Virus record (IMG/VR): IMGVR_UViG_2910170622_000001 | Location: 1-33,788 of that record | Length of the DNA stretch: 33,788 bases | Direction: 5' to 3' (one strand) | DNA from: a virus | Part shown: positions 10,411 through 26,258 of the stretch, one piece after another | Position numbering within the stretch: the first letter of the stretch is position 1 | Layout of the letters: each line of letters begins with the position of its first letter | Program-made: the position numbers and the translations under genes | Notes under the pieces: generated by a model | The model's input: only the letters and a program-made list of their open reading frames with translations | Told to the model about the DNA's origin: nothing | Databases searched by the model: none

Positions 10411-10421
10411 CAGTTATTCTC

Positions 10422-10943
10422 CTATGGACGATTTAAGCGTAGTGGTGCAACTTTCATCGCCGCTGCTGTGGCACCTGTGACAGTCTTCAACCAGTAAGCG
10501 CCAGCAATGAGAGTGGCACTACCCCCATTAGCCGCGCCTCTAAATGCACCAACAACTGAGGATGTAGCTGTGTGGTTTAAGTACACTGGAGAGCCTTGAA
10601 CAATGTCGCCGTCAATATAAACAGCAATGTCGCCTGCTTCTAGAAAAGCTAGTTCGTGAAAGTTTGGGATGCCAAAGCGACCGCTGCCATCAAGCGAATA
10701 GCCCGATCGCTTTTCAATGTCCATTTGACGGTTGACACCGCGAAAAATGCTGTTCGCGTCAGTTGGCAGTGTCAGCAAGTCAGGTGTAGCACCTTGACAA
10801 ACACCAAAGCCGAACGGAATGATCGCGCCAGTGTTGTTAAAGCCAGTCAGGATGCTACTGATGGACGATCCTTGAGTGGTGATTTCTTGACCGGGGAAGT
10901 AAAGCTGCCCGTCGAGTAAATCAATGTGAGTAGTTACGGGCAT
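10422..10943 (-). CDS. Capsid cement/decoration protein
   Basis: IPFGFGVCQG, GDIAVY, GSPVY, GAFR motifs; between scaffold and capsid genes; AGGAGG RBS. Confidence 0.75.
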   Translation of the reverse strand: MPVTTHIDLLDGQLYFPGQEITTQGSSISSILTGFNNTGAIIPFGFGVCQGATPDLLTLPTDANSIFRGVNRQMDIEKRSGYSLDGSGRFGIPNFHELAFLEAGDIAVYIDGDIVQGSPVYLNHTATSSVVGAFRGAANGGSATLIAGAYWLKTVTGATAAAMKVAPLRLNRP

Positions 10944-11699
10944 TTAGTTACCTCCTTTCCATGCGTTTGCATACATTTGTTTGACAGCATCCATATGGTT
11001 GTCTCGACTGTCATCACGGACTGAAGAGGCGATCGCTAGCTTCTCAAGCTGCCCGCCCGTTGACGGTCTACGCCATAGCTTCATTGCTGTGTAAGCCCCT
11101 GCCACAGCTTGCTCTGAGTCAAGCTTGATGTCGCTGTCAAAGTTAGCGATCGCTGCTGCTTGAATGCTGTAAGCACTGCTGCTACCGTCTAGCTTGAAGT
11201 CATCAGGCAGAAACGGCTTTGCATCGTCATACGCTGCAAAAATACTGTCTAGACGTGCTTGCACTGCTGCTTCAATATCAGAGTCAGAACGTTCTCCAGT
11301 CTCTTCGTCTTCTTCGGAGTCAGTGCGGTTGAGAAGAGTACGAGCGATCGCTAACTCACCTTCCAAAGAGTCGATGTGAGCATTTGCACGCTCTAAATCG
11401 GCAGCATCCTTTTTCATCTTCTTTTTGATGAAGTCAGGGATCTCGTCTTCCTCTTCTTCGTCATCCATATCCTCGTCATCTTCTTCCATCACGACTTTTT
11501 TCTTAGAGTCGTAACGCTCGTCTTCACTGTCGTAACCGCGTCTCATGGGTGCTTCCTCATAGTTTTCTTCGTCGTCATACATGGACTCTGCGATCGCCTG
11601 CTGCTGCTCTTTCATCTCAAGTGAGTACTCAAGTGCTTCGGCTAATTCAGGCTCAACGTCATGGGTTTTGATACTGCCGGGGAGTGTGATGGTTGTCAT
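10944..11699 (-). CDS. Scaffolding protein (acidic, coiled-coil); start MTTITLPG
   Basis: Highly D/E-rich, ends YANAWKGGN like the C-terminal scaffold part of DUF2213 proteins; lies between protease and cement genes. Confidence 0.75.
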   Translation of the reverse strand: MTTITLPGSIKTHDVEPELAEALEYSLEMKEQQQAIAESMYDDEENYEEAPMRRGYDSEDERYDSKKKVVMEEDDEDMDDEEEEDEIPDFIKKKMKKDAADLERANAHIDSLEGELAIARTLLNRTDSEEDEETGERSDSDIEAAVQARLDSIFAAYDDAKPFLPDDFKLDGSSSAYSIQAAAIANFDSDIKLDSEQAVAGAYTAMKLWRRPSTGGQLEKLAIASSVRDDSRDNHMDAVKQMYANAWKGGN

Positions 11700-11707
11700 G
11701 TCTTGCC

Positions 11708-12949
11708 TCAAAAGTTAAGCCCTGCTTCTGCTAGGCGTTTGTTTCTAGCCGCCCCTTTCGCTCTATTGGTTTCTGCTGCTGCTGTAATTGCCTGCTTCGA
11801 TGGCTTGTTCTTTCCTTTCTTTGGTGCCGACTGTCGTGAGAAATCAGAGAAGCCTGATTTACTCCGAGATGAGGCAGACTTAGAGACGTTTGATAGCGCT
11901 TTGCCTTTCTCGGGAGTAATGCCTCTCAACCTGTTTTGCTCCACACGCTTCTTGTCAACAGCAGCCCGTTTAGTGCCGTCGCTAAACTTTTCACGTAGTT
12001 GCTGAGTGCGTTCCTGATTCTTCTTGACTTGAGTTTTAGGGTTGCAATTCTTGCTAGCAGGGATCGAGTAACCACCAGGACACTTCTTGCCTGTGCCAGT
12101 TTTTTTATCAAACCGCCACAGTTCGCCCTCTGAGTCAACCCGGTACTCTTCTTCTGTGGTGTCAAACACTGGCACCATGTCAGCAGCGTCAGCATGGCAA
12201 CCGCAGTCATCTAGCCCCCGTTCTTTAATCTCAATGTAGAGATCCATCGGTACCCAGAAAGGACGTTTGCCCTGTGGGGTCGTTAGCTCAATCTGATATT
12301 TATCTGCCACTGGTGCATCCTTACGAACAGTCGGTATTGGTGCTTCAATAGCGGGTTCAATCTGCCATGCGATGTCATTCGTATCAGCGGAGTCGAATCT
12401 AAAAGTTTTGATTTTTGCGCCAGCAGCTCTTGGCTTAGAGCAGACTGCCATGTGGTCTTTACGCATAGGCTCATCTTGCAAAGCGTCAAACGCTTCCCCA
12501 TGCCACTCGCCAGCGTCATTTCTTACGTTCGTTTCATAGCCAACGCTCACGCCATCTTTGCGACCAAAACGGATGTCGTCTTGCGTTTCAGGGTCATAAA
12601 CATCAAAGGTTACTTGCACCCGTCCATCGTCAAAGACATGGACTTTGTTCTGAGTTCTACCGACTTGATACTTTTCTAGTAACGCATCATCATTCCGAAG
12701 CAGGCAGGGAGGATGCTCTCTAGTTACGGGTAAATCAGCTAACTGAGCTACTAACGGTTTTCCATCGCTATCTGTTCGTCGCAAAAACTCGCGCGATACT
12801 AATTCACGACGAGTTGATCCATCAGCATTTCGATACGTTAAAATCCCAGGCTCACGAGCGATCGCGGTGACAGTCATCACTCCATCTCTGGAGTCAAAAC
12901 GCTCGATCGTTGCTAATTGATTAAAGCGAATTGCTGTAGCCAAGGGCAT
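11708..12949 (-). CDS. DUF2213-type prohead maturation protease with basic C-terminal extension
   Basis: IAREPGILTY, RRELV, LPVTREHP, GVSVGY, DHMAVCSKPRA motifs. Confidence 0.88.
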   Translation of the reverse strand: MPLATAIRFNQLATIERFDSRDGVMTVTAIAREPGILTYRNADGSTRRELVSREFLRRTDSDGKPLVAQLADLPVTREHPPCLLRNDDALLEKYQVGRTQNKVHVFDDGRVQVTFDVYDPETQDDIRFGRKDGVSVGYETNVRNDAGEWHGEAFDALQDEPMRKDHMAVCSKPRAAGAKIKTFRFDSADTNDIAWQIEPAIEAPIPTVRKDAPVADKYQIELTTPQGKRPFWVPMDLYIEIKERGLDDCGCHADAADMVPVFDTTEEEYRVDSEGELWRFDKKTGTGKKCPGGYSIPASKNCNPKTQVKKNQERTQQLREKFSDGTKRAAVDKKRVEQNRLRGITPEKGKALSNVSKSASSRSKSGFSDFSRQSAPKKGKNKPSKQAITAAAETNRAKGAARNKRLAEAGLNF

Positions 12950-13001
12950 AATGTAATCACGCAGTCAATACCTTGTTCTACCCCTTGCCACCCTGCCTAA
13001 G

Positions 13002-13232
13002 ATGAAATCGTTGGAAAGTCCAACACAGCAAGAACTTCGCCGTCGCTTTGTCGGCAACTTTAAGAACGCAGTTGAGCGATCGGCGTACAGCGATACTCAG
13101 TTGACAGACATGATGGGATTGCACCGCACTGCCATTTATGAAATTGTCAACAGTGGCAGAAAGGTCGATCCAGCAGAGCTATCCGGTTGGTGTCGTGTCC
13201 TGTGCGTAAGCTTTCAGGATTTAGTGGGATGA
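13002..13232 (+). CDS. XRE-family helix-turn-helix protein
   Basis: SDTQLTDMMGLHRTAIYEIVNSGRKVDPAELSGWCRVLCVSFQDL. Confidence 0.8.
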   Translation: MKSLESPTQQELRRRFVGNFKNAVERSAYSDTQLTDMMGLHRTAIYEIVNSGRKVDPAELSGWCRVLCVSFQDLVG

Positions 13233-13489
13233 CCGTTACAGTCACCATTACGGACACTCAGACAGGCAGGCAGATGGCTTTGCCTGTTGACTGGGACAAT
13301 GACGACGCTTTGTGGTGTTCTGGCAACAATGACTGTGATTGCAATCTTGGTCTGCTTTTAGGTGTTTGGAGGCTTGAGGATGCAGTTTGTGGTGATACAC
13401 GTTTTGAGGTAGAGGCGATCGACGAGCAAGGCTTACTCTGGCGGCGTGGTGTTGACGGCAATGAGTACGATCGGGAGTTAGTTGAATGA
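13229..13489 (+). CDS. Small Cys-containing hypothetical protein (W.SGN.DCDCN...CG..RF)
   Basis: ATGA coupling at both ends; possible Zn ligands. Confidence 0.65.
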   Translation: MTVTVTITDTQTGRQMALPVDWDNDDALWCSGNNDCDCNLGLLLGVWRLEDAVCGDTRFEVEAIDEQGLLWRRGVDGNEYDRELVE

Positions 13490-14016
13490 AAAAGAAACTG
13501 TCAGACTTTCGTTTACAGCAACGCAACGGTAACAAGCATAGCGTTCGTGGCATGGGGATGCTTGACCACACGATCGCTACAGAAGGATTCATTGGCGCGA
13601 TAACGGCAGCAGCAGACGGTGAAGTGTTTGACGGCAGTGCTAGGCTTGAAACTAGCTTCGATCGCTTTGGTGAGACGGTAGAACCGATAATTGTTAGAAG
13701 CAAGGGCGATCGCCCGATTATCCACATTAGGGAAGATATACCGAACGCCGAAGACCCGAAAGCAAAGCTGCTTTCGATCGCGGCTAACCGTATCTCTGAG
13801 GTTAACTACGTGCCTGACACAGATGTGTTAGCAGAGTTGTCTGGGGATATTGACCTATCATTGCTCTACTTTGATGATGAGCTTGATAACTTGCTTAAAG
13901 GGTTGAGTGATCCGCCCCCACCACCAGAGAACGATCGCGGCTTCAATGGTCAAACCAAAGAGATTAACTGCACTTGCCCTCAATGCGGGCATGGGTTTGT
14001 AAGACAAATGCAATAG
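13486..14016 (+). CDS. ParB-N-like protein upstream of terminase, with C-terminal CPxCG Zn ribbon
   Basis: RNGNKHSVRG...GFIGAIT...FDGSARLE, AANRISE, CTCPQCGHGF; this arrangement is common next to terS. Confidence 0.7.
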   Translation: MKKKLSDFRLQQRNGNKHSVRGMGMLDHTIATEGFIGAITAAADGEVFDGSARLETSFDRFGETVEPIIVRSKGDRPIIHIREDIPNAEDPKAKLLSIAANRISEVNYVPDTDVLAELSGDIDLSLLYFDDELDNLLKGLSDPPPPPENDRGFNGQTKEINCTCPQCGHGFVRQMQ

Positions 14017-14038
14017 AAACCTACAAAAAATATAAGAA

Positions 14039-14497
14039 ATGGAAGGAAGAGGTAGAGGTAGACCGTCAAAACTAACACCAGCAGTCAGAGAAAAGCTGGT
14101 GCAAGCGTTGTTGGCTGGCAACTATATCGAGCCTTCCTGTGCCTATGCAGGGGTGTCTTATGTTTCCGTCCGTAATTGGATGAATAAAGGCGAGCAAGCT
14201 ACTTCGGGAGAGTTCAGGGACTTTTATTCAGCAGTAACTAATGCGATCGCCCAGGCTGAAATCTCGACAGCAGCCCACATCAAAGGGGCTGGCAAGGATG
14301 ATTGGCGAGCGTCAGCATGGCTACTAGAGCGCAGACACCCCGATCGCTGGTCAAATACGCAACGGGTCAAGATTGAAGTCGAAAAAGAGTTAGAGCAAAC
14401 GTTAGCCAAACTGCAAACCAAACTACCTGAAGATGTCTTCATCCAAATCATCGACGCTATCGCTGATGCAGAAGCTAGCGAGGAAGAAACAGGCTGA
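14039..14497 (+). CDS. terS: Terminase small subunit
   Basis: GRPSKLTP HTH, AGVSYVSVRNWM, DWRASAWLLERRHPDRW; immediately upstream of terL. Confidence 0.82.
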   Translation: MEGRGRGRPSKLTPAVREKLVQALLAGNYIEPSCAYAGVSYVSVRNWMNKGEQATSGEFRDFYSAVTNAIAQAEISTAAHIKGAGKDDWRASAWLLERRHPDRWSNTQRVKIEVEKELEQTLAKLQTKLPEDVFIQIIDAIADAEASEEETG

Positions 14498-16100
14498 GTT
14501 CAAATCCAGGCAGAAAATTGCTAATGAGCAGATTAGCCTAGCGACGTTTGTTAAAGAAAGCTGGCATGTTTTAGAGCCGGAAACGACTCTAGCTTGGAAC
14601 TGGCATATTGATGCCATGTGTGAGCATATCCAGGAATCACTACTGGACTGGTTGCGACACAAACAAGACTCAAACTATAAGCAGCGCATCCAAAACCTTT
14701 TAATTAATGTGCCACCTGGCAGTCTTAAGTCTAGAGTCGTCAGTGTTTGTGCCCCCGCATGGTTTTGGACTATCTGCCCTTCATGGCGTGCTATCTTCCT
14801 TTCTTCTAACCCTCGTGTAGCCTTGCGAGATAGCGCCTATTGCCGGGACTTAATTGAAAGTGAATGGTATCAGAAACGCTTTAAGCCTGACTGGAAGCTG
14901 CGTGTTGATACAAACGCTAAGTCGCTTTATTGGAACACCAAAGGTGGGCAAAGGGCATCTTTTGGTTTCAATTCACGGATTACGGGCGATCGCGGCGACT
15001 GCATTTTGGTAGATGACCCTCATGATGCTAAAGAGATCGAATCAGATTTGCTGCGTCAAGCTGTCCTCGATCGCTGGGATAGTGCCATCCGTAACCGGGT
15101 CAACGACTTGCGATCGTCTGTTCGTATCGGCATCATGCAGCGCTTACATCAACTTGACTGGTCCGGGCACGTTTTACAGGAAGGTGACTGGGCGCTTCTT
15201 TGTATCCCTCAAGAATTTGAAGCACCACAAGCACCAACACCGCTCGGCTGGGTAGACCCTCGAACCGAACCGGGGTCATTGATGTTTGAAGAACGCTTCC
15301 CTGAGTATGTTTTAGAGAAAGAGAAACTTGTTTTAGGTTCGTATGGTTACGCAGGACAGCATCAACAGAAACCTGCGCCATCTGAAGGAGGGATGTTTAA
15401 GCTGGCGAATTGGCGTGTGTATGTGCCAAGCGCTGCGCCTAGGTTCACTCGCATGATTCTGAGCTGTGATGCTGCTTTTAAGGGCACAAAAGATTCTGAC
15501 TATGTGGTTGTGCAGGCGATCGCGCAGGTTGCCGATGTGCATACGGTGTTAGATCAGGATGGGAAGCCGATGCTGTTCTCTGATTACTATCTGCCCTACC
15601 AAGCACGATCGCGTGTGGGCATAAGTGGCACCGAGACAATGATCAGAGAAACGTCAAATCGTTACCCAGAAGCGTATACAAAACTGATTGAAGATAAGGC
15701 AAACGGACCCGCAGTGATTGAGCGATTGAGTAGTGAGTTAACAGGCATCACACCATTTAAGCCAGGGATGAACAGCAAGCGATCGCGTGCGTGGTCAATT
15801 CAGCCAATTCATGAAAGGGGTGGTATTTTACTGCCTGCTTCTGACGCTGTTGCGGCAGCGCTTGAGTCAATGGGTAAAACCTCGATTACAGTAGGTGAAT
15901 GGTGGGAATTACATCCACCGCTGCATAAGACAAATGCTGAGTACGCACCAGTACAAGAATGGTGCAAAGCGTTAATGGATGAATTCGCTCAGTTCCCTAA
16001 CGCTGCCAATGACGATCAAGTGGATGCGCTCGATCAAGGCATTATCTGGCTCGAAGCTAACAAGCCACAAAAAACAGGTATGGACCTGCTTTGGGCTTAA
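14466..16100 (+). CDS. terL: Terminase large subunit (start probably MQKLARKK)
   Basis: Walker A LLINVPPGSLKS, Walker B ILVDDPHD, IMQRLH, nuclease motifs SCDAAFK..DSDY, IEDKANG, FPNAANDDQVDA. Confidence 0.95.
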   Translation: MQKLARKKQAEFKSRQKIANEQISLATFVKESWHVLEPETTLAWNWHIDAMCEHIQESLLDWLRHKQDSNYKQRIQNLLINVPPGSLKSRVVSVCAPAWFWTICPSWRAIFLSSNPRVALRDSAYCRDLIESEWYQKRFKPDWKLRVDTNAKSLYWNTKGGQRASFGFNSRITGDRGDCILVDDPHDAKEIESDLLRQAVLDRWDSAIRNRVNDLRSSVRIGIMQRLHQLDWSGHVLQEGDWALLCIPQEFEAPQAPTPLGWVDPRTEPGSLMFEERFPEYVLEKEKLVLGSYGYAGQHQQKPAPSEGGMFKLANWRVYVPSAAPRFTRMILSCDAAFKGTKDSDYVVVQAIAQVADVHTVLDQDGKPMLFSDYYLPYQARSRVGISGTETMIRETSNRYPEAYTKLIEDKANGPAVIERLSSELTGITPFKPGMNSKRSRAWSIQPIHERGGILLPASDAVAAALESMGKTSITVGEWWELHPPLHKTNAEYAPVQEWCKALMDEFAQFPNAANDDQVDALDQGIIWLEANKPQKTGMDLLWA

Positions 16101-16126
16101 TAAAGAAGGGGTGCTGAAACACCCCT
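16099..16126 (-). terminator. Hairpin GGGGTG-TTTCAG-CACCCC followed by TTCTTTATT on the minus strand
   Basis: Perfect 7-bp stem 16107-16126; U-rich tail only on the minus strand. Confidence 0.55.
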
Positions 16127-16181
16127 AGAGTAACTCAATGACATATGCGTTTGTGCTTCCATCTTAGCCACAGGCTAGACA

Positions 16182-19100
16182 ATGGCAACACAAAACGGCA
16201 ATGGCAACGGAAATGGATCGGTCGTAGCGCACTGGGATGATATGGCATCGCTCGGTGCTGCCCTCTCTGGTGGGATCTATAACCCACAGACAGGTATGGG
16301 TATGGTCGGCACTGACCCTAGCCGATCGGCATCGGTCTTCTACGGTGGCAGGCTAGAGCGTGAACAGCAAGAAAGCTTGTTCCGCAACTATGGCTTGCTG
16401 CGTAAAGTCGTGTGCAATATCCCCAGAGCTGCCACTTACCGATGGGGTACGCCCACATTGCCAACGGGTAGCAGTGCCAAGCTTAATGCACTGATTGATG
16501 CACTTAACCAGATCCCAATCCATAGCGCTCGTCACGTCTACAAAGGAGCTAAGAAAGGCTTTCAAGAAGCGCTCAAGACTGCGTTTCTGACGGGTAACTC
16601 TGCCCTCGTTATGGATGCGGATGATGGGTTGCCATTGGATCAACCGCTGAACCTGAAGCGACTTAACAGCGTTAGAAAGCTGTGGCTGTTTAGCCGGTGG
16701 CAACTGGTGCCAGATGACCGATCGCTGACGGTGCTGCGGCAATCTGAGCACTTTGAGATTGTGGACCACAGGGCGATGGATGCACCTGAAGCGAGTTGGC
16801 GTATCCACCGATCGCGTGTGCTGTGGTTCCGTGGTGCTGAACTAATCGACGGGTATACGGGCAGCTATAACCAGGGCTGTGATGATTCGATTCTGCAAGC
16901 GATGTTGGAGTCGTTTTACCTCTATACGAACGGGGTGAAAGGGGCAGGCAGAATGCTGGAGGATTTTGATTTCTATGTACACAAAATCACTGGTCTGCTA
17001 GGCAAACTCGAAAGCAATCCGCAGAAAGCACAGCAGGTCATATCAGCACGACTGGAGATCAACCGTCAGCGGCGATCGAACTTCCGCGACATGGTGATTG
17101 ACAAGGAGAACGAAGAAATCGCCCCTGTCAGTCGCCAAGTCGGTGGTTATAGCGATATGCTCGACCACTGCAAGAACTACCTCTTAGCGTCCACAGACTA
17201 CCCGCCTTCTGTGCTGTTTGGTGAGTTTAGTGCTGGGTTGAACGCGACAGGCATGGAAACATCCGAGCGGCAAACGTGGAACGATACGACTGCACAGGCA
17301 CAGCAGGATAAGTGCGAAGACAATGTTTTAACACTGGCTAACGTGTTGTGTGCGGCAAAGAGTGGACCCACACAAGGCAACGAACTGAAAGGGCTTGCAT
17401 GGCATTGGCACGTCCTCTATGCACCATCCCCTGAAGAAAACGCAGGGCTACAAAGCCAGTTCGCCACGATGCTATCGACCTTGGCACAAGTTGAGCAAAG
17501 TGTGATCGGTCAGGTTGGCATCCGCACGCTGTGGGGACAGAACGAGTTTAACCAGAACCTTGTACTGCCTAAGAACTACGTCAAGTTTCTGGATGACGCG
17601 ATCGCCGCTGCCGTTATTCCACCGCCACCTGAAGAGGAGATGTTAGGCGAGGCAGAGTTAGAGGGCGAAGAATTTGAGGGTGAGGAGCAACTAGCGCTAG
17701 AGGGCAATGATCAAGATCAGGCGATCGCTGACGAACTACTAGACGACCGCACCTTGCTCGACTCCAACGACGTTTTCTTCCTCTACCACCTAGACGCTAG
17801 TACACGCAGCGAACTCCTAGCGAAGGTCAAAGCTAAGAACGAGAGTTTAGCCAAGGGTAAGAAGTTCAACGCCTTCGGGAAAACAACGGCTGAGATTAGG
17901 GCGTTTGTAGGCGAAGGTGGTGATTCACCTGCTAGTAAGTCTAAGGGCACTGCCAAGCCTGCTAGCGGCAAAGCAGGCAAGTATCAGACATCTAAGACCA
18001 GTGGTGCCATTGCCAATGCGATCGCCCGTAAAACGGGTGCTAAGGCAGAGGATATTGAGCAGGACTTGCGCGGCAAGATTCAGAAGGCGATCGACAAAAA
18101 GCGGCGTGACCTGAAAAAGGCAGGCAAGGAAGTCACAGACAAGGATCTGCGTCAGGCTGCACGCGATGTTGTGAAGATTGAGGCGAAGGGTGCGATCGCT
18201 AAAGCTAAAGGTGAACCGATTGCACCAGAGAAAGCCATCGTTAAGAAGCCGAAAGCGACTAAAGCTAAAGCGGTTGAAACTCCTGAAGCGGCAGAGCCTA
18301 AGAAGACGAAGACTGCCAAGAAGAAAGTGGTCGAAGTCGAGCCTAAGCCTATGGAAGAGAAGCCCGTCAAAGCTACTAAACTTAAGGAAAAAGCTAAGGA
18401 TAAACTAAATGTCGGAACAGAAACCAAACCCCAAAAACAAGAAAAATCAGGAAGTAAGACCGGAGAGGTTCGTGGAGCAGCCGGAGGACGTGAACCTGTT
18501 CCTGAAACCGACGAAAAAGAAAGAAAAAGAGCGTTAGAGACGCACGATGTTATTAAAGGCGACTTGTCACGAGATCAAAAAATAGATCGTATTGCCGAAA
18601 TTACAGGACTGGACAAAACTAAAGCCGAGTTTGCTTTAGACGGTATTTCTACCTTCACAAGTGATGCAGGTGAGATAAGACAGTTCGAAATTGGTCAACC
18701 TCTTAAAAGCGACGATCAAGAATACAAAGATGGAGTCAAGGAGAGTGCTGACGGGACAAATCTTTATGTTCGCTCCATGCCTAAATTCAAAGGCGAAATA
18801 CACAGAGGACTTAAATTCAACACAGACGAGGAGAGAGACAAGTTTATTTCATCTGTATCTAACGGGTTTGAGTTGCAAGCTTTAAGTAGTTTTTCATCTG
18901 ATCCCGCGATCGCGCTTCGGTTTAGCGTGGGTATGAAGAAAAAGCCAGGTGTAGTCATAAGCGTCAAATCAAATACAAAAGGAGCTTCCGTAAAAGGAGT
19001 TTCTTCAGTCCCAGCCGAGGATGAAATTGTTGTTCCTAAAGGAGCAAAGTACAAAGTAGTTAAGCAATACGTGAAAGATGGCACTGTCCACCTCGACGTA

Positions 19101-20456
19101 GAGGAAGACGACGACGTTAAGCCACAAGTCGCAACGCCTCCTGTTAACTCTAAAGCGGTGCCAGCTAATAAGCCCAAGCAATCGCCGCGCGCCGACTCTT
19201 ACGAGCAAATCAACTTTAAGCCACCCGTCGAGGCACGACAGGCGTGCAAGAAAGGGCTAGAACTGCACAAAGCAGGCAAGTCAGGCAGTGGTATTGAACC
19301 TGCCACGATTAAAGAGGCAATGGCGATCGCGCAAGGTAAAGCTGTTACCCCTGAAAAGGTCGAAAAGGCGTACAGATGGTTTGCCCGCAACAGTCGCTTT
19401 GCAAGTGCCCCTGAAGGCTCTGGCGCTCACACCGACTGGCTAATTTGGGGCGGCGAACCTTTCAAAACATTCGTAGGCAAAGTAAAGCGGCAGATGGAGG
19501 CAGCACAGGGAGAGCAATCGGACTCTTTTGCTGATGAAAGGCTAAAACTTGATGCGACATGCGGCAAAGGATGGGTAGGGTCAAAACCGCCGGGTTGCAC
19601 TAGAGCAAAGAAGGGGCAACCAATACCGACAGCAGCTAAACCAGAAACTACACCAGTTGCTAAAGAAACCGCTCAACCATCAAAAGCTGCACCCGCAGAG
19701 CAAAAAAACCGTACTGCTGGATCTCACTCTATTTTTAGTCGCAGACTGGTTCAAGCTGAAGGTGATGAGCCAGAAAAAGCAGATATTGAGGCGATGGCTT
19801 CCCAGTTAGAGCAAAAACTGGGGCTAACAAAAAAAGAAGCGAAAGAAACTATTTCTAGCGTCACCAGTTTTACAGGAGATAACTACACAGCGATTCGTAA
19901 AGCTGAACGTGAAGGCAAGCCAACAAAAGAAGGTAAGGCGATCAATCGTTATATCGAAAAAGCGCCAAAATATGACGGCGAAATTTATAGGGGTTTATCG
20001 TTTAAGACCACTAAAGAGCTTGATGACTTCCTGAATACTGCTAAAGAAGGTTCGTCAATGAAACCTGACGCTGTATCAAGTTTCAGTAGCGATCGATCTA
20101 TTGCCGAACGATTTTCTAAAGATTCTGGCAACCAAAACTCGGTTGTTCTTAAAGTCAAACAAAACCGTAGCGGGGCTTCCATACAAGACTTGACACTATA
20201 CCCAGAAGAAGGCGAGGTGCTTGTGCCTAAAAACACGACCTACAGAGTAGCTTCAGTGAAAAGAAAGGGCAACACTGTAGAGATTGAATTGGAGGATACC
20301 GCACCTCCACTTGAAAAAAGCAAAGTGGAAGAGAAGAAGCCTGCCAAAGAAACTAAAGTGCAATCGTTCAATTCGCAAGCAGCGATCGCCAAATTCAAGG
20401 AAGGCAAGCCGCTAAGTCAAGAAGAAGCAGCATTTATCAAACAATTATTAGGCTAA
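16182..20456 (+). CDS. DUF1073-type portal protein fused to a Lys-rich linker, two R-S-E ADP-ribosyltransferase domains and a helical phage-head domain
   Basis: N-terminal ~480 aa with LLRKVVCNIP, RIHRSRVLWFRG, DSILQ, PPSVLFGEFSAGLNATG; ART1 HRG/SSFSSD/AEDEIVVP; ART2 YRG/SSFSSD/EEGEVLVP; FKPP..RQACKKGLE...WLIWGG domain. Confidence 0.88.
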   Translation: MATQNGNGNGNGSVVAHWDDMASLGAALSGGIYNPQTGMGMVGTDPSRSASVFYGGRLEREQQESLFRNYGLLRKVVCNIPRAATYRWGTPTLPTGSSAKLNALIDALNQIPIHSARHVYKGAKKGFQEALKTAFLTGNSALVMDADDGLPLDQPLNLKRLNSVRKLWLFSRWQLVPDDRSLTVLRQSEHFEIVDHRAMDAPEASWRIHRSRVLWFRGAELIDGYTGSYNQGCDDSILQAMLESFYLYTNGVKGAGRMLEDFDFYVHKITGLLGKLESNPQKAQQVISARLEINRQRRSNFRDMVIDKENEEIAPVSRQVGGYSDMLDHCKNYLLASTDYPPSVLFGEFSAGLNATGMETSERQTWNDTTAQAQQDKCEDNVLTLANVLCAAKSGPTQGNELKGLAWHWHVLYAPSPEENAGLQSQFATMLSTLAQVEQSVIGQVGIRTLWGQNEFNQNLVLPKNYVKFLDDAIAAAVIPPPPEEEMLGEAELEGEEFEGEEQLALEGNDQDQAIADELLDDRTLLDSNDVFFLYHLDASTRSELLAKVKAKNESLAKGKKFNAFGKTTAEIRAFVGEGGDSPASKSKGTAKPASGKAGKYQTSKTSGAIANAIARKTGAKAEDIEQDLRGKIQKAIDKKRRDLKKAGKEVTDKDLRQAARDVVKIEAKGAIAKAKGEPIAPEKAIVKKPKATKAKAVETPEAAEPKKTKTAKKKVVEVEPKPMEEKPVKATKLKEKAKDKLNVGTETKPQKQEKSGSKTGEVRGAAGGREPVPETDEKERKRALETHDVIKGDLSRDQKIDRIAEITGLDKTKAEFALDGISTFTSDAGEIRQFEIGQPLKSDDQEYKDGVKESADGTNLYVRSMPKFKGEIHRGLKFNTDEERDKFISSVSNGFELQALSSFSSDPAIALRFSVGMKKKPGVVISVKSNTKGASVKGVSSVPAEDEIVVPKGAKYKVVKQYVKDGTVHLDVEEDDDVKPQVATPPVNSKAVPANKPKQSPRADSYEQINFKPPVEARQACKKGLELHKAGKSGSGIEPATIKEAMAIAQGKAVTPEKVEKAYRWFARNSRFASAPEGSGAHTDWLIWGGEPFKTFVGKVKRQMEAAQGEQSDSFADERLKLDATCGKGWVGSKPPGCTRAKKGQPIPTAAKPETTPVAKETAQPSKAAPAEQKNRTAGSHSIFSRRLVQAEGDEPEKADIEAMASQLEQKLGLTKKEAKETISSVTSFTGDNYTAIRKAEREGKPTKEGKAINRYIEKAPKYDGEIYRGLSFKTTKELDDFLNTAKEGSSMKPDAVSSFSSDRSIAERFSKDSGNQNSVVLKVKQNRSGASIQDLTLYPEEGEVLVPKNTTYRVASVKRKGNTVEIELEDTAPPLEKSKVEEKKPAKETKVQSFNSQAAIAKFKEGKPLSQEEAAFIKQLLG

Positions 20457-23400
20457 TTATGATTAATCATAAAAAGTTTGGAGACACTGACAGTAGTTTT
20501 TGGAGCATAACACCATCTGAACCGAAAGCCGATGCATTCCCCAAGTACGATCGCCGCGTGTTAATTCACGGTTGCACGATCGGCATCACGCACCCAGTTG
20601 GTAGTCATCGCTTCCCCAACGGCAAACCACTGATTGCAGCGTATGGGCACTTACTCGGCACCTCAGACCGATCGCGCCACTCTTCCAGCGCTGACATCTA
20701 TCTCGGCAACGAGCCAGAGTCAACGCAGTTATGGAAAGTGACTCAGACGAAGCCAGATGGACTCTTTGATGAGTACAAGTATTTTGCTCATGTCAAAGAT
20801 GCAGCACAGGCGAGGGCATTACATCGCTACCACGTTGGGGGCGATCGCTCTGGGCAAGTAGAACCTGCTGATTGGTCAGAACTCAAAACAAACCGCTGAG
20901 AGAAATCCTTATGCCGACATTGACTGAGATGGAAAGACTAGCCGATCGCTACTCGATGCCGATCGCTGAAGTTGTGGCAGTGATGGCTGCGAGAGAGGAT
21001 GCTGAATGCGGCAGAGGGTGGCAAGGGAACAAGCCAGGTTGCACTAGGGCTAAAAGCAAAGCGTCTTCCTCAAATACAACAGCAGTTAAAAAAGAATCTG
21101 CCCCACAACAAGTAGAGAGAAAGGCTAAGACTAAAGCAGTTGAAGCAAAACCAAAAGATAAATCAATAAAGGAAGCCGAAAATGGATCAAAAGTACCTGG
21201 ACGAGTTACACGAACTGGAAGCAGCAGCGGGGTCAGCACTGGCGGCAACACAGAAGCCGAAACCCTCCAATCAAGCGGAATCAAAACCGATGCCGATAAA
21301 AAAGAAGTAGAAAAAAATCTAAGGTCATGGATTTCAAAGAATGCAGACCTTAGAGGCAAAAAGGATGCGCCTAAAACACTAGAAGATAACGCTAGTATTG
21401 CGTTTGAGATACTTGATAAAGTCGAATCTGGCGAGAGTTCCTTTACAGGGATTAAAGATAAAAAAGGGAATCTGCAAGCTGCCGCGATCGTTAAGGAAGG
21501 CAAAGACCACCTAGAAATTGAGTATTTAGCAACGGCACCTTGGAATATCGCAGGGAAGGACAAGAAGGCTGTCAGAGGTGCTGGCACTGCCGCCATGGCG
21601 TCTGTCATTGCTGAAAGTGTGAATAAAGGGCACGGTGGCAAAATTAGGCTTGATGCACTGCCAGGTGCAATTCCTTTCTACGAAAAAATAGGCTTCAGTG
21701 TCACTGGCAAAACGAAAGGCGGCAACGACGGCGTGATGTCTATGGAGCTAACACCACAAGCGGCTAATGCTTTTCTTGAAAAGATTGGGAAGAAAGCCAA
21801 AATGGATTCATTGCACCCATCAACCGCTTCACTAATCAGCGCGATCGCAAAGTATCAGCAGCAAGGCTACGACATAGCACCAGCGATCGACTCTATCCGC
21901 AGCGATGGCAAGTGGCAACCTTGCGGCAAAGGGTACGCACCCCCAGGCACGTGCAAGAACGGCAAGCCGGAAGCAAAGGGTAAAACTGCTACAAGTCGCC
22001 ATATCCTTAACCCCAACGCTGACCTGAACTCAAGCGCGGGGCAGAAAGAGGCAGTGGGCAGAACGAGCCGTATCAATCAGTTGGTCGATAAGCTGGCAAA
22101 CGGTCGGTTTAAGGTCACTCCAGACGATCCAAACAAGGCGGGTAAGATGGGCGCTCTCACCGCCATGCGTGACGCTAAGAACCCTAACATCGGGTTGATT
22201 ACTAGCCACAACGCTAAAGACGGCATCACAGGAGCAATGTCTTACAAAGAGGGTCGGAACACTATCACAGTGCAGAACTTTGGCGCTGATGGTTCTGCTA
22301 AAGGCTCTGGCTCTGAAATGTTCAATCAGTTGTTGCTTCATGCTGCCAAGCAGGGCAAAGGGTTAGAAGCTTCATCAGTGGAAGGGGCAAAGGGTTTCTA
22401 TAGCAAGATGGGCATGACTGACGAAGGCTATGGGCAATTCTCTATGTCGAAGCGTGATGTTGCTGCTGCCGTTGCCAAGTTGAATGCTCGCACTGATTCA
22501 AGGTTAGATGCCACTACAAAGAACTCACCACCTAAGCCATGCGGTAAAGGTTGGCAAGGCACAAAGCCAGGTTGCACTAGAGCGGGGAAAGGGCAACCCA
22601 CCCCTACAAAGTCAGCAACACCGAAAGCAGCAACACCAGTTGCCAAAAAGAGTAAAGCGACAACCAAACCACAGCCATCAGACGACCTTGAAACGCTGAA
22701 GAAAAACTATGAAGAACGGGATGCTCGATCGCTTGGTGGCGTTACAAGCAAATTCAGCGATGTGGGCAATATGATGCAGCTTTACGCTGATGAAATTAAG
22801 TCAGCAGGTAAAGGCGATAAAACATTGACTGCTGCTTTCGATCGCGGTGAGCGTAACTGGAATCCTGCGCTAGTGGTTGAGACAGACAAAGATCAGTACG
22901 AAGCGATCGGTGAGAGTAGCAACCGGACGATCGCGGCTGCTAAAGGGTCGAAAGAAGGTCGAGCATTTAGCATCATCGTGCCAAATAATCCTGATCAGAT
23001 TGAACTTGCCAAAATGCTGCAAGTGCCTGACAAAAAGAACCCAGCGGTAATGGGCAAAGAGCGGGCAGACGACAAAGAAGACAAACAATCGTTTGACTAT
23101 GGCAATTACATCAGTGCCTACTCAGACACGATCGCGTCCCCCTCTGGCAAACGTCAGCACGAAGGCACCGACGAGCAAATCGAAGCCGCTGCCAAGAAGT
23201 TGTTAGCGACGAATGGGCGTAACTGGGTGCCGATCGTCGTGAAGCCGACTGGTAAGAATGAAGCAGGCGACGAGCAGTTTGAAGTGGTGGGCAACCACTT
23301 CGCCTATGATGTGGCACGCAAAGCAGGATTAGAGCGCATTTGGACAGTTGTAGCTGATGACACTGTGAACGCTGCCAAACCAAAGACAAAACAGACTAAG

Positions 23401-24729
23401 GCTGACTCTATGCACCCATCTACAGCAGCACTGATTAGCGCGATCGCCAAATATCAGCGCTTAGGCTACAACGTTGATAGCGCGATCAACTCGCTCAGGC
23501 AAGATGCCCGCGGCGAGGGAGTTGCTTGTGGTAAATCTTTTATTAGTCCTAGAGCCAAATGCAGCAAGGAAAAGTCTAAAACAACTTCCAAGGAAGCGTT
23601 ACAGAAGACTACAGCGAAGGCAAAAGCACGACAGCAGCTAAGGGCAGAAGTCGAGGGGCGTGGCAAGCCTAAGTCCAAAGGCATGACCAAAGCAGAAGTC
23701 TCAGAGATGATGGCTAACCCTGAAGCGGAAGCCGCACGACTGGCTGTGATGGGCTACCCCAAAGTCGAGCCATCCGCCCGATCGCGCCGGATTGCAGGCT
23801 TAGTCGATGACCTGAAGACCACTGCCAAAGCAGAGGATAAGAACGCCGATCGCATTCAGGCAGTTGCCGCTGAAGCGCTGAGTCGTCTAGGCATTGAAAC
23901 TACGCCATCGAAGACACAGACACAGCCAACTAAGCTACCCGCAGGAGGATCAGGTAAGCAACGGTTACAAGCAGCGATGGAAGGGCTGAAGGCCAATACT
24001 CAGGCTGACTTGGTGAACGCTGCCCAAGGGCTAGCTGTGGCACAAGTGGCAGTCAACGAGTTGACCAAGCAGGCAGAGAAAGATAAGCAGAAGGAGAAGA
24101 GAGCGATCTCACCTACACCAGAAGAAGGCTCAACTGCTGCTATGTACGAACGCAGAGCGCGTGAGTTTGAGCAACGCAAGGAGCAACAGCAGCGTGATCA
24201 ACAGAAACTAGCAACCGCTGACTTAAGCAAACTCACACCAGAGCAGCGTCAAGTAGCAGCACAAATTCAGCGCAAGGTAGAACAAGGTTTCACGATCGAC
24301 CCTGCTATCACCAAACAACGGCGTGAAGAGATTCAAACGAAGCTAACCAGACAAGGCAGGCTAGGGCGTAAAGAGCTTTTTGAGAACCTAGCAGCGTGGC
24401 AGGCAGAAGACGAAGTGCTGAGAAAGTTGGGCTTCCCCACCGCTAGCGATCGCCCTAAGCCTACTCTCAAACCCAAAGGCATCACTTCTGCCCCCCAGTC
24501 GTCACGCGGTAGAAGTGGCACCGCAGGCGATAACCCTAACTACAGGGGCAAATATGGCTACGTTAGCGTCGATTCACTGTCACCTTCTACCGGGTCACTG
24601 ATTAGCGCGATCGCTAAGTACAAAGCAGATGGGTTTGACGTTACACCAGCGATCGAGGCTTTTAGGAAGGATGCAGCGTGTGGCAAAGGTTGGCAAGGTA
24701 CAAAGCCACCAGGCTGTACTAGGGCTAAA
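19560..24729 (+). repeat. Dispersed coding repeat A: CG(K/R)GWxGxKP(P)GCTRA at 19560, 21007, 22540, 24679; variants at 21922 and 23527
   Basis: Visible in protein and DNA (tg[ct]gg[ct]a[ag]agg.tgg...cc[ag]gg[tc]tg[ct]actag). Confidence 0.9.
20459..20899 (+). CDS. Phage inorganic pyrophosphatase-like (InPase) domain protein, degenerate
   Basis: ITHPVGSHR, AAYGHL.GT, DIYLG, Q.KPDG.FDEYK match the phage InPase pattern; the usual DGD motif is missing. Confidence 0.65.
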   Translation: MINHKKFGDTDSSFWSITPSEPKADAFPKYDRRVLIHGCTIGITHPVGSHRFPNGKPLIAAYGHLLGTSDRSRHSSSADIYLGNEPESTQLWKVTQTKPDGLFDEYKYFAHVKDAAQARALHRYHVGGDRSGQVEPADWSELKTNR

Positions 24730-25773
24730 AGTACAAAGCCTAGCCCAGAGAAGACAGTTGCAAAGAAAGCGCCACCAAAAGCTGTCAAAACAACAGAACT
24801 TAAAAAAGAAAAGGCACCCAAAAAACAAGCCGCTAAAGCAAAACCAGAAGTAGCTGATGACTCTGTGAAGAATGGAGTTGTCAAAGCGAAGGCAGGCGAT
24901 TTAAACCCAGTTAAGCTGACTGCTGATGAGATGGTTAACATATCAGATCGCTTAGACAGTATCGACACTAGCGCTAACGGCGACAGGATTGGGGCAGCTT
25001 GGGCAAAAATACAAGGTTTTGACGGCAAACCAGAGCTTTCCTCTAAGGCAGATATGGATGCTGCTATAGCTAGGGGCGAGACAGCAACGTATAGAGGGGT
25101 GGCTCTTGAGAGTCATGCCAAACAGCTTCAAACTGGTGAGCTATTTGTTGGAGGTGGTTTGTTTGGCGACTCCATCTATACAGCAGTCGATAATCCACCG
25201 GGGTTAGGTTACAAGACTGCAAGCGGTTATGCAGGCGAAGGCTCAACAGTAGTCAGGATGTCGATCAAGCCTGGACTGAAAATAGTCAAGCACGATGCCT
25301 TGATTAAAGAAATGGAGGAAGCCGCGGAAGATTTCAAGGAGAAAAAAGCACCGTTAATTATTCAGAAAGAAACCGAGCGCCTAAACAAGACTGTCAGCTT
25401 GAAAAAGGTTGACAGCAAGACAGATGCAATGTCGATCGATGGCGTTGATGCAGGACAGGTTAAGAAGGTAGGAAAGTTTTATCGCACGATCCTACCTGGG
25501 TATCGTCGTGAAGAAGACACCAAATTCAAAACACCCGAAGAAGCTCAAGAGTCTTTGAAAAAGCGAAAAATGTCAGAACTGGCAGAATTGAAAGTAGCAA
25601 AAGTCTACGACAATTTCTTTCTCAATGAAGGTACATACGCTTCTGCCCGTGGCTATGACGGCTATAGTATTGCCAATACTAAAGGGGGCAAAACACCTCT
25701 AGCTGATTACACAATGATTACCAACAGGACTGCATTAAGAATGCAGTCTGAACTACTGAGCAAGCAGTCATGA
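20911..25773 (+). CDS. Polyvalent effector polyprotein: GNAT, GNAT, ParB-like x2, coiled-coil, C-terminal ART-like domain, separated by repeated modules
   Basis: GNAT1 IEYLATAPWN..RGAGT..DALPGAIPFYEKIGF; GNAT2 KGSGSEMF..AKGFYSKMGM; ParB-like RNWVPIVVK..FEVVGNHFAYDVARKAG; ART-like YRG..G.GLFGDSIY..ASGYA..GYDG..ITNRTAL. Confidence 0.82.
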   Translation: MPTLTEMERLADRYSMPIAEVVAVMAAREDAECGRGWQGNKPGCTRAKSKASSSNTTAVKKESAPQQVERKAKTKAVEAKPKDKSIKEAENGSKVPGRVTRTGSSSGVSTGGNTEAETLQSSGIKTDADKKEVEKNLRSWISKNADLRGKKDAPKTLEDNASIAFEILDKVESGESSFTGIKDKKGNLQAAAIVKEGKDHLEIEYLATAPWNIAGKDKKAVRGAGTAAMASVIAESVNKGHGGKIRLDALPGAIPFYEKIGFSVTGKTKGGNDGVMSMELTPQAANAFLEKIGKKAKMDSLHPSTASLISAIAKYQQQGYDIAPAIDSIRSDGKWQPCGKGYAPPGTCKNGKPEAKGKTATSRHILNPNADLNSSAGQKEAVGRTSRINQLVDKLANGRFKVTPDDPNKAGKMGALTAMRDAKNPNIGLITSHNAKDGITGAMSYKEGRNTITVQNFGADGSAKGSGSEMFNQLLLHAAKQGKGLEASSVEGAKGFYSKMGMTDEGYGQFSMSKRDVAAAVAKLNARTDSRLDATTKNSPPKPCGKGWQGTKPGCTRAGKGQPTPTKSATPKAATPVAKKSKATTKPQPSDDLETLKKNYEERDARSLGGVTSKFSDVGNMMQLYADEIKSAGKGDKTLTAAFDRGERNWNPALVVETDKDQYEAIGESSNRTIAAAKGSKEGRAFSIIVPNNPDQIELAKMLQVPDKKNPAVMGKERADDKEDKQSFDYGNYISAYSDTIASPSGKRQHEGTDEQIEAAAKKLLATNGRNWVPIVVKPTGKNEAGDEQFEVVGNHFAYDVARKAGLERIWTVVADDTVNAAKPKTKQTKADSMHPSTAALISAIAKYQRLGYNVDSAINSLRQDARGEGVACGKSFISPRAKCSKEKSKTTSKEALQKTTAKAKARQQLRAEVEGRGKPKSKGMTKAEVSEMMANPEAEAARLAVMGYPKVEPSARSRRIAGLVDDLKTTAKAEDKNADRIQAVAAEALSRLGIETTPSKTQTQPTKLPAGGSGKQRLQAAMEGLKANTQADLVNAAQGLAVAQVAVNELTKQAEKDKQKEKRAISPTPEEGSTAAMYERRAREFEQRKEQQQRDQQKLATADLSKLTPEQRQVAAQIQRKVEQGFTIDPAITKQRREEIQTKLTRQGRLGRKELFENLAAWQAEDEVLRKLGFPTASDRPKPTLKPKGITSAPQSSRGRSGTAGDNPNYRGKYGYVSVDSLSPSTGSLISAIAKYKADGFDVTPAIEAFRKDAACGKGWQGTKPPGCTRAKSTKPSPEKTVAKKAPPKAVKTTELKKEKAPKKQAAKAKPEVADDSVKNGVVKAKAGDLNPVKLTADEMVNISDRLDSIDTSANGDRIGAAWAKIQGFDGKPELSSKADMDAAIARGETATYRGVALESHAKQLQTGELFVGGGLFGDSIYTAVDNPPGLGYKTASGYAGEGSTVVRMSIKPGLKIVKHDALIKEMEEAAEDFKEKKAPLIIQKETERLNKTVSLKKVDSKTDAMSIDGVDAGQVKKVGKFYRTILPGYRREEDTKFKTPEEAQESLKKRKMSELAELKVAKVYDNFFLNEGTYASARGYDGYSIANTKGGKTPLADYTMITNRTALRMQSELLSKQS

Positions 25774-26070
25774 GCAAAGAGATAGCTTTTACCACATTGA
25801 GCCAAAGGGCAGGCAAGGTAATAAATGCCCCTGTCTTTAAGAAGTTGAAGTTTGACAGTTTAGCGAAGTACTTCAAGCTTGTTGGCGTAATTAATAACAC
25901 TGACTTCTTTGAGAATCTGCCTGCATCTACTCAAGCCTTAATCAAGCAAGCAGAGCAAGAGCTGGACGAAAAGTCTAGCCAACCACCTAGCACCATACGA
26001 CCATCCACTGATTCATTGGTTAATGCGATCGCTAAGTTCCAGAAGCAAGGCATTAAAATCGACTCTGCCA
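21805..26070 (+). repeat. Dispersed coding repeat B: DSx(H/S)PSTxxLISAIAKYxxxG(Y/F)xxxxAI at 21805, 23404, 24571, with a divergent copy at 26001
   Basis: Four aligned copies, three in the polyprotein and one in the downstream gene. Confidence 0.88.
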
Positions 26071-26258
26071 CAGCCTTGGACATTCTAAAACAGCACAAAG
26101 ATGGGATGAGCAAATACGATCGACTGGTCAAGTCTCTAGCTGCTAAAGGTGCTGATGATCCAAAAGCGCTAGCAGCAGCGATCGGGCGCAAGAAGCTCGG
26201 TAAGAAACGGTTTCAGGCAAGAGCAAAAGCAGGCGCGAGGAAAGCGGCTAAAGCATGA
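25770..26258 (+). CDS. Putative immunity-like protein fused to repeat B and a basic tail
   Basis: ATGA coupling to the ART-like C-terminus; LSQRAG...FENLP..TQALIKQAE; PSTDSLVNAIAKFQKQG; KGADDPKALAAAIGRKK. Confidence 0.7.
   Translation: MSKEIAFTTLSQRAGKVINAPVFKKLKFDSLAKYFKLVGVINNTDFFENLPASTQALIKQAEQELDEKSSQPPSTIRPSTDSLVNAIAKFQKQGIKIDSATALDILKQHKDGMSKYDRLVKSLAAKGADDPKALAAAIGRKKLGKKRFQARAKAGARKAAKA

Follow-up and report, generated by a model that had tools for sequence, protein, structure and literature searches.

Candidate head-packaged effector polyproteins and a predicted aspartate cleavage motif for DUF2213 proteases in a putative cyanobacterial prophage

Why should a prophage place a long array of enzyme-like domains among the genes that build its head? 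The question is raised by a stretch of 33,788 nucleotides, called here the window, which is the first 33.8 kb of a 108.9-kb provirus record of IMG/VR (IMGVR_UViG_2910170622_000001). Its head module encodes a portal protein fused to ADP-ribosyltransferase (ART) domains, a free pyrophosphatase-like (InPase) protein, and a polyprotein in which GNAT acetyltransferases and other units are strung between copies of a repeated module, referred to below as the tag. The reading that we favor, at a probability of roughly 0.6, is that tagged enzymes are loaded into the prohead, cut apart at their tags by a DUF2213 protease, ejected with the DNA, and act on the host.

A short motif, [R/K/H]-x-D-[S/A/G], had been noted in the initial annotation as dense in the scaffold and recurrent at module boundaries. 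Motif counts were compared with composition-preserving shuffles and are given as seen/expected. The 255-aa scaffolding protein (10944..11711, minus strand), which has a hyper-acidic stretch and no Pfam match, carries 10/1.0 sites (z 9.6). Enrichment is also found in the protease (8/1.3, z 6.1), in the polyprotein (16/4.5, z 5.4), and in the product of the 162-aa gene downstream of it (3/0.6, z 3.2). All 25 other genes in the window are at background, including those for terminase and tail proteins, and the capsid and cement proteins have no site at all. Control motifs with Glu for Asp, with the order reversed, or with a large residue at P1′ are flat or depleted in the window. Both halves of the original observation hold: The scaffold is the densest protein, and nine of the polyprotein sites bracket tags. 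The other polyprotein sites lie before GNAT1, within GNAT1, and within the C-terminal unit.

A relative whose portal is 41% identical (L016) served as a hold-out, and nothing was defined on hold-out sequences beforehand. In this relative enrichment is again confined to the scaffold (10/0.9), protease (10/1.7), and polyprotein (12/3.4), with 19 further open reading frames (ORFs) at background. The scaffolds of the window and L016 are 43-47% identical, and six motif sites are conserved in position. A protease-scaffold fusion in L011 has 15/1.9 sites. The pattern extends to isolated phages, with z values of 5-10 for the DUF2213 protease-scaffold proteins of cyanophages CL131, S-CBS4, and PaV-LD, coliphages ACG-M12, TLS, and T1, and Listeria phage B054. 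When all 8000 patterns of the form X.YZ were counted without bias in eight scaffolds, R.DS ranked first (21 seen vs 0.83 expected) and R.DA next; R.DS remains first if the window scaffold is left out. The residue that follows [RKH]-x-D in these eight proteins is Ser in 33 cases, Ala in 22, Gly in 8, and Met in 7, and any other residue occurs at most twice. Position is informative as well. In most of the DUF2213 proteins compared, the motif marks the end of the protease domain and also occurs near the N-terminus. In capsid and portal proteins of ACG-M12, CL131, PaV-LD, B054, TLS, and T1, it is found 5-27 residues in from the start.

Two published capsid N-termini fall on the predicted cut. The Edman N-terminus of the mature TLS capsid protein (PMC11447400) maps to residue 28 of the deposited gene, directly after K-N-D, which is the sole motif site there. 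The cryo-EM model of the T1 capsid begins at residue 27 (PMC11945409), and this residue is the Ala right after K-Q-D, again the sole motif site in the protein. The head genes of TLS and T1 belong to PF09979, PF06381, and PF09950, the same three families that are present in the prophage. As an aside on the TLS gene (L030, 15087-16061), its authors surmise that 45 residues are removed, and their own Edman sequence maps to residue 28 (PMC11447400).

Could the motif instead be a by-product of composition or structure in acidic, helical, Ser/Ala-rich proteins of the head interior, with no protease recognition involved? Scaffolds are rich in Asp, Ser, and Ala, they are helical, and S-x-x-E helix-capping boxes follow many of the sites. 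However, composition-preserving shuffles yield one tenth of the observed count, and the Glu, reversed, and large-P1′ variants are not enriched. The placement of the motif 5-27 residues from capsid and portal N-termini, and its coincidence with the mature N-termini of TLS and T1, also argue against a by-product, which we regard as very improbable. Because the motif is enriched in hold-outs and in distant phages, recurs by position, and coincides with the TLS and T1 N-termini, R/K/H-x-D-S/A/G is probably the DUF2213 cleavage site, with the cut predicted after Asp. This assignment is well supported, by the family-wide enrichment in DUF2213 scaffolds and by the match to the two mature capsid proteins, and it agrees with the role that the initial annotation had proposed for the motif.

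The protease of the prophage is encoded at 11708..12949 on the minus strand, with its DUF2213 domain at 12395-12949 (PF09979, 57.2 bits with the cut-off at 22; assigned to PHROG 530 as a head maturation protease). Three residues, H79, S135, and H166, are invariant in the DUF2213 domains of 8 phages, and in a Drexlerviridae homologue, described as a prohead protease with a scaffolding function, a Ser is taken to be catalytic (bioRxiv 10.1101/2023.05.21.541620). The C-terminal 230 aa of the window protease (11708-12400; L016 6083-6650) include an extremely basic Lys/Arg/Ser tail, which makes up the last third of the protein, and the scaffold has an acidic run of ∼40 residues. An electrostatic contact of the scaffold with the protease, or with the cargo, is conceivable.

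How are sites of this kind arranged in the cargo? The two repeated modules that had been seen between the enzyme-like domains, repeats A and B, are real: BLAST searches with fragments give E values of 1e-8 to 1e-16, and profile searches recover the copies. The two repeats are best described as halves of one module. The tag begins with a two-helix piece of ∼30 aa (B), continues with R/K/H-x-D plus a small residue, and ends with a two-Cys loop and basic linker (A). The loop has the form C-G-K/R-G-W-x-G-x(3-4)-C and is followed by R-A-K and a basic Lys/Pro/Ala linker. In an alignment of 14 tag copies, the Asp and both Cys are the sole invariant columns. Five copies are located in the polyprotein, one of them at its very N-terminus, and one copy precedes ART2 in the portal fusion; the downstream 162-aa gene has B alone, and no further tag copy is present in the whole 108.9-kb provirus record. 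A cassette is the unit of tag, basic linker, and effector.

Two proposed relationships of this module gained no support. One was that B derives from the coat-binding helix hairpin of the scaffold, as suggested by Pa193 gp24; a B profile finds all B copies at E 1e-9 to 1e-19 and scaffolds only at E >3. A two-Cys loop at the C-terminus of the protease (∼12041-12082) resembles A visually, and with a tag-profile E value of 5.6 it was not accepted as a true A module. A HIP1 octamer (GCGATCGC) is present in every B copy, at Ala-Ile-Ala codons (window 21841, 23440, 24607, 26025). This may simply follow from codon preference where HIP1 is abundant in the genome; alternatively, the octamer may aid recombination between cassettes.

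The cargo is encoded on the plus strand and opens with the 1424-aa portal fusion. Its portal domain (16182..17795; PF06381, 112 bits) is closed by an H-L-D↓A site at 17787-17798 (the arrow marks the predicted cut), which is kept in P0003 and P0005. A Lys/Ala-rich linker (to ∼18605), 65% identical in P0003 and L016, leads into ART1 (linker and ART1, 17796..19187; PF03496, 23.9 bits), a duplicate of ART2. An R-A-D↓S site comes next, followed by a helical domain of ∼120 aa and unknown function (19188..19553). The same domain (window 19197-19553) recurs behind the portal domain in P0004 and P0007, always a few residues past x-x-D↓S/A. The last segment (19554..20456) consists of a K-L-D↓A site, part A of the tag (19554-19676; tag profile E 5e-12), and ART2 (∼19821-20342; PF01129 and PF03496, E 1e-12). 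Thus three of the five motif sites of the portal fusion fall at module junctions, namely behind the portal domain and in front of the helical domain and the ART2 tag, and the first two of these junction sites are kept in the portal fusions of relatives. The portal-tethered polyprotein that had been proposed is borne out insofar as a PF06381 portal is fused to two ARTs. However, the tether is probably transient, with release of the ARTs from the portal, because a conserved site, H-L-D↓A, comes immediately behind the portal domain.

The 146-aa InPase gene (20459..20899; PF18823, 51.9 bits against a cut-off of 26.8) begins 2 nt past the stop codon of the portal fusion (window 20454-20461), and a K-A-D↓A site lies 25 aa from the InPase start. 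A -1 frameshift that would join the two was considered: The InPase frame is open for 34 codons upstream, but there is no slippery heptamer, and the idea was dropped. In P0003, L016, L012, P0007, and PB1 gp18, an InPase domain is fused in frame to the portal. Because relatives fuse the same domain to the portal, the window gene looks like a split or not-yet-fused cassette.

The polyprotein follows, with 1633 aa if translation begins at TTG 20872 or 1620 aa if it begins at ATG 20911. The ATG appears more likely because the database protein P0001 begins there. The N-terminal tag (20911..21096; tag profile E 6e-22) consists of a degenerate B, R-E-D↓A, and the Cys loop, and it precedes the GNAT1 acetyltransferase cassette (21229..21798; PF13673, 29 bits), whose free tagged counterpart P0063 is 38% identical. 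Tag 2 (21799..22014; BLAST and tag profile) has K-M-D↓S, B, R-S-D↓G, and a variant Cys loop, and is followed by GNAT2 (22015..22491), which is 68-70% identical to its counterpart in L016. Tag 3 (22492..22671; tag profile E 3e-12) is A only, with R-T-D-S / R-L-D↓A, the Cys loop, and a basic Pro/Lys linker. It leads into a tandem unit at 22672..23397 that may be ParB/Srx-like. Tag 4 (23398..23616; BLAST and tag profile), with K-A-D↓S, B, R-Q-D↓A, and a variant Cys loop, introduces a helical unit of unknown function (23617..24567) that is 31% identical to L016. Tag 5 (24568..24768; tag profile E 1e-24), with x-V-D↓S, B, R-K-D↓A, and the Cys loop, introduces the C-terminal unit (24769..25773), an unconfirmed candidate for an ART-PolyVal-like domain. 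The 162-aa gene (25770..26258) overlaps the polyprotein stop codon. Its B copy (∼26004-26096; B profile E 1.5e-9) lies between x-T-D↓S and H-K-D↓G, and the protein ends in a basic tail.

Are the cargo units truly enzymes? At least two unrelated domains are present per polypeptide, portal, two ARTs, and a helical domain in one case, and two GNATs, the ParB/Srx-like unit, and others in the other. At least eight enzyme-like domains had been counted initially. Five of these (ART1, ART2, InPase, GNAT1, and GNAT2) are firm, the ParB/Srx-like pair is soft, and the third ART, in the C-terminal unit, is open. ART2 is a strong match; ART1 scores at the cut-off and is 33-48% identical to ART2 (PF03496/PF01129; BLAST). 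The catalytic residues R, S-x-S, and E-x-E are intact in the translations of both. The direct Pfam match of GNAT2 is weak (E 0.08), and homologues with 44-48% identity exceed GNAT cut-offs. In the unit at 22672..23397, the two halves resemble each other, and no Pfam match was obtained. Its low-confidence structural model (pLDDT 48) has top Foldseek matches that are all ParB, Noc, or sulfiredoxin (E 0.05-0.9; best probability 0.98), and a language-model search also gave a ParB-like lead. We tentatively call this unit ParB/Srx-like, with low confidence. The C-terminal unit has no Pfam match at E<=1 and no PDB sequence match; its AlphaFold model (pLDDT 32) is unusable, and a language-model lead to ART-PolyVal (PF18760, score 0.89) is unconfirmed. 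Among the segments, for which the initial annotation had called for fold checks, those that could be resolved are ART, GNAT, InPase, and, with low confidence, ParB/Srx-like. Neither the helical domain nor the helical unit has a Pfam match. An HExxH motif is absent from all five proteins, none of which has a peptidase Pfam match, and so the cargo seems to be without an in-built peptidase able to process the polyprotein itself.

The tag is not confined to one prophage. The profile of 14 tag copies was scored against 1.84 billion representative proteins, and 94 proteins were matched at E<=1e-3, 35 of them at E<=1e-10. Most tag-bearing representatives are 200-460 aa long with the tag at residue 1, and about twenty are long and carry two to six copies. 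An x-D is found within 16 residues upstream of the Cys loop in 114 of 126 loops, usually 2-3 residues before the first Cys. The domains behind the tag include ART (6), GNAT (5), InPase (3), protein kinase (3), DnaJ (3), lethal-factor-type (ATLF-type) peptidase (2), ParB_N (2), LRAT (2), helicases, and others. Three further tag carriers are DUF2213 proteases, and one is a portal. The tag is thus common to the protease, to portal extensions, and to enzymes, all of which must end inside the procapsid. It is not covered by any Pfam family, and the ten tag proteins that were looked up are metagenomic and are either nameless or "hypothetical."

For each of the cassettes in the window there is a free tagged counterpart, for ART in P0050, P0018, P0062, and L014, for GNAT1 in P0063, for GNAT2 in P0012 and L020, and for the ParB-like unit in P0092. 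In L014 and L020 the free tagged genes adjoin terminase and portal genes. Among relatives, InPase is found in four places: behind the portal domain, at the end of a portal fusion, inside the second polyprotein, or free, which is the arrangement in the window. In L016, the ParB-like cassette precedes that of GNAT2, the reverse of the order in the window. By these comparisons the cassettes are portable and occur free, portal-fused, or concatenated. It had been proposed to look for the repeats in other DUF2213/PF06381 prophages and to ask whether the cargo between them varies. The repeats recur with the same head module, and the cargo differs among prophages and even changes order. L016 itself and L017 (JAESFU010000041.1, 188-210 kb and 86-108 kb) are two 22.3-kb stretches of a metagenomic contig that are 100% identical, either because the prophage head region is duplicated or because of an assembly artefact.

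Other searches for the tag had narrower yields. Among 401 cyanobacterial genomes sampled, the sole true match is in G001, which was the center of the search, holds L009, and was a known tag carrier beforehand, so the sample yielded no new one. One candidate, L031 (G283:C27, 4430-6484), is a 684-aa transposase-like ORF with a look-alike C-G-K-G-Y...C loop and was discarded as a false positive. Almost no matches came from word-indexed homologue searches, whether the tag or the C-terminal unit served as query, single-protein scans of viral contigs (portal, P0073, P0076) gave no matches, a pattern scan with a narrower tag alignment returned only L014, and a PDB sequence search with the tag found no match.

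Do the tagged proteins enter the virion at all? The cargo genes are flanked by genes for TerS, TerL, portal, protease, scaffold, cement, and capsid, as identified by profile searches and PHROG. The capsid, cement, 255-aa acidic scaffold, and 413-aa DUF2213 protein genes follow in this order on the minus strand. The plus strand, which diverges from them, carries in order the ParB-like gene, TerS, TerL, the 1424-aa portal fusion, the 146-aa InPase, the polyprotein, and the 162-aa gene. The major capsid protein (9439-10410, minus strand; PF09950, 76 bits) and the cement protein (10422-10943, minus strand; PF22758, 55 bits), together 9439..10943, would form the shell that encloses the cargo. The ParB-like gene of 176 aa (13486-14016; PHROG 620), which encodes a Cys-rich C-terminus, lies upstream of TerS and opens the rightward head operon. 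As for the host, 46 HIP1 octamers are present in the window vs 0.6 expected. HIP1 is a signature of cyanobacteria, and we therefore read the host of the prophage as cyanobacterial.

An explanation that dispenses with packaging is that the polyprotein and the small tagged proteins stay out of the virion and act late in the cytoplasm, in superinfection exclusion, for example, or as toxins of lysogenic conversion for which the downstream gene would supply immunity. On this view the repeats would be oligomerization modules or scars of recombination that spread as cassettes were shuffled, perhaps aided by the HIP1 site within each B. Packaging is indeed a prediction, HIP1 is found in each B, and the cassettes have clearly been shuffled. 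Against this stands the position of the genes between the portal and the remaining head module, with one set fused to the portal itself. Moreover, the tag is also present on portals and DUF2213 proteases, both of which belong inside the capsid, and the motif is common only to scaffold and protease besides the cargo. The downstream gene encodes B and a basic tail, as cargo genes do, rather than a typical immunity fold. We consider a purely cytoplasmic role quite unlikely.

A second alternative accepts packaging and denies cleavage. The cargo would be delivered whole, as giant polyvalent proteins (Iyer et al.), the tags would serve as targeting elements or spacers, and R-x-D would have a structural role in the tag, for example as a helix cap, its likeness to the scaffold cut sites being a coincidence. 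There is precedent for this, since delivery without cutting is described for the virion RNA polymerase of N4 and for several polyvalent proteins of plasmids (PMC5512222). The motif enrichment of the cargo is almost wholly inside the tags, and some sites fall in enzyme cores. However, the same four-residue pattern with a small P1′ residue tops the scaffold patterns and marks the TLS and T1 capsid cut. A protease that shares the capsid interior with exposed copies of its own sites is expected to cut them, and the internal tags retain the full layout of the N-terminal tags of free proteins. Delivery without cutting strikes us as unlikely.

Several results weigh against delivery of tagged enzymes with cleavage by the DUF2213 protease, and some of them bear on the cutting. 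Outside the tags the cargo is barely enriched in the motif (131 seen vs 110 expected), and the portal fusion overall is not enriched (5/3.3). About seven motif sites lie inside enzyme cores (GNAT1, ART2, C-terminal unit), so not every site can be cleavable and accessibility must decide. The N-termini that anchor the rule are those of capsid proteins of distant coliphages, whose protease is only ∼28% identical. The DUF2213 protein of PB1 (Pbunavirus) is without any motif site, and a rule universal within DUF2213 was rejected on this ground; the rule covers a large part of the family, not all of it. The PB1 branch must follow another rule or be inactive. The PB1 protein retains the Ser/His/His residues, and the PB1 portal ends in an InPase-like domain (L029; 5172-6569, 1112-3421).

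Other such results concern the tag and its proposed function in loading. Searches of 50,697 isolated phage records and of five complete DUF2213 phage genomes turned up no copy of the tag. The free InPase gene carries no tag. B showed no kinship to the scaffold when the two were compared by profile, and a targeting role for the tag is purely what we infer.

Loading of the tagged enzymes, cleavage by the DUF2213 protease, and delivery with the DNA nevertheless fit the locus best, and could proceed as follows. The portal fusion would enter the prohead as the portal, and the polyprotein and small proteins would enter by way of their tags, being built into the scaffold core as in the scheme for T4. 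Fusion to the portal guarantees twelve copies per head. The DUF2213 protease, presumably using its Ser/His/His residues and degrading the scaffold at the same motif, would then cut behind the portal domain and after the Asp of each tag. That the cargo itself is cut is suggested by its exposed copies of the motif of scaffold and protease. Single effectors would be freed, with new N-termini at or just before the Cys loop, and B would be removed as a propeptide or spacer. The basic, tag-headed enzymes might remain with the DNA and exit the capsid alongside it, and both packaging via the tag and ejection are proposed here from context and by analogy with T4 Alt and the internal proteins. Once in a new host, the enzymes could ADP-ribosylate, acetylate, or otherwise modify host or defense components, to judge from their domain families.

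A broader proposal is more tentative, and we give it somewhat less than even odds. The combination of B, R-x-D, and Cys loop could be a portable "load and release" signal that takes any protein into the procapsids of one clade of DUF2213-type phages and is clipped by the head protease, the Cys loop and basic tail then holding the enzyme on the DNA for co-ejection. An injected arsenal would be built by the shuffling of cassettes among free genes, portal fusions, and polyproteins.

These findings have several practical consequences. They provide a concrete and cheaply testable cleavage rule for DUF2213, a family present in T1-like coliphages, Listeria phages, and many cyanophages. The tag flags about a hundred unannotated protein clusters as probable virion-delivered effectors, including kinases, ARTs, acetyltransferases, peptidases, and helicases, and the tag-bearing effectors occur in a phylum for which few polyvalent proteins are reported. 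If the tag does load and release cargo, then it would explain how injected anti-host toolkits are assembled and reshuffled, and would offer a natural model for the packaging of foreign proteins. It would also amount to an undescribed cargo-addressing system with an Asp-specific rule for a very large, uncharacterized protease family.

How does this system compare with those already known? In T4, a short motif directs the prohead protease gp21 both to the scaffold, which it destroys, and to head-packaged, injected proteins, from which it removes N-terminal targeting peptides. One of these proteins, Alt, is an ART of the R-S-E type, and the others are the internal proteins IPI-III. However, the T4 protease belongs to S77 and cuts after Glu (L/I-x-E), whereas here a DUF2213 protease is predicted to cut after Asp (R/K/H-x-D↓S/A/G). 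The L/I-x-E sequence of T4-type capsid targeting is not what is found in the window, where the motif is R/K/H-x-D and its Glu variant is not enriched. In addition, T4 cargo consists of separate small proteins with a signal of ∼10 aa, in contrast to a two-Cys tag of ∼60 aa that is reiterated in polyproteins and on the portal. No homology was detected between the T4 system and the tag system, and by analogy the latter would work like that of T4 without being a member of it.

The phages phiKZ and SPN3US, with proteases gp175 and gp245, respectively, are similar in that many head-interior or ejected proteins are processed at one short motif common to scaffold-like proteins (PMC5694885, PMC10052503). 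They differ in that the motif is S/A/G-x-E, the phages are jumbo phages with a T4-like protease, and there are no portal-fused enzyme arrays and no such tag. Closer in content are the polyvalent proteins, in which ART, GNAT, ParB-like, and InPase domains are combined in one polypeptide whose gene lies among the late head genes in phages of the portal-terminase type, portal-InPase and portal-ART fusions occur, and packaging and injection have been predicted (PMC5512222, PMC9503650). For these, processing has been proposed to be carried out by an in-built zincin-like metallopeptidase, which is frequent and not obligatory; none is present here. The A/B tag matches none of the LPD families of polyvalent proteins now in Pfam. 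The paper of 2017 described ARTs of the Alt/VIP2 type in such arrays, and occurrence in cyanobacteria, as lacking or rare (PMC5512222).

Phages that share the head families fall on either side of the rule. T1 (gp50) and TLS (gp33) have the same protease, portal, and capsid families, the scaffold part of the protein has 11-12 motif sites vs 1.2 expected, and the capsid protein is cut after K-x-D. In contrast to the window, protease and scaffold are one protein in these phages, tag and enzyme cargo are lacking, and the cleavage rule was not found stated in their papers. In Pa193, E217, and PB1, the DUF2213 protein (gp24) likewise adjoins cement and capsid genes, and a helix-turn-helix piece of ∼40 aa stays under the capsid vertices (PMC11042391). 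PB1 also has the C-terminal InPase-like domain on its portal, but it has no R-x-D-S/A/G site, no tag, and no polyprotein.

The general concept is therefore known, both for head-packaged effectors that are processed by a protease (T4, phiKZ, SPN3US) and for polyvalent proteins with portal fusions. A linker and cleavage grammar of the present kind was not known to be described when the locus was initially annotated, and this appears to hold for the tag and the Asp rule, which seem new, and not for the concept. A cleavage specificity for DUF2213 was not found stated in the papers reached by searches on DUF2213, on prohead-protease cleavage, and on processing in T1-like phages. What appears to be undescribed, then, is the Asp rule for DUF2213, the tag, the use of the prohead protease in place of an in-built metallopeptidase, and the presence of Alt/VIP2-type ARTs both in such arrays and in cyanobacteria.

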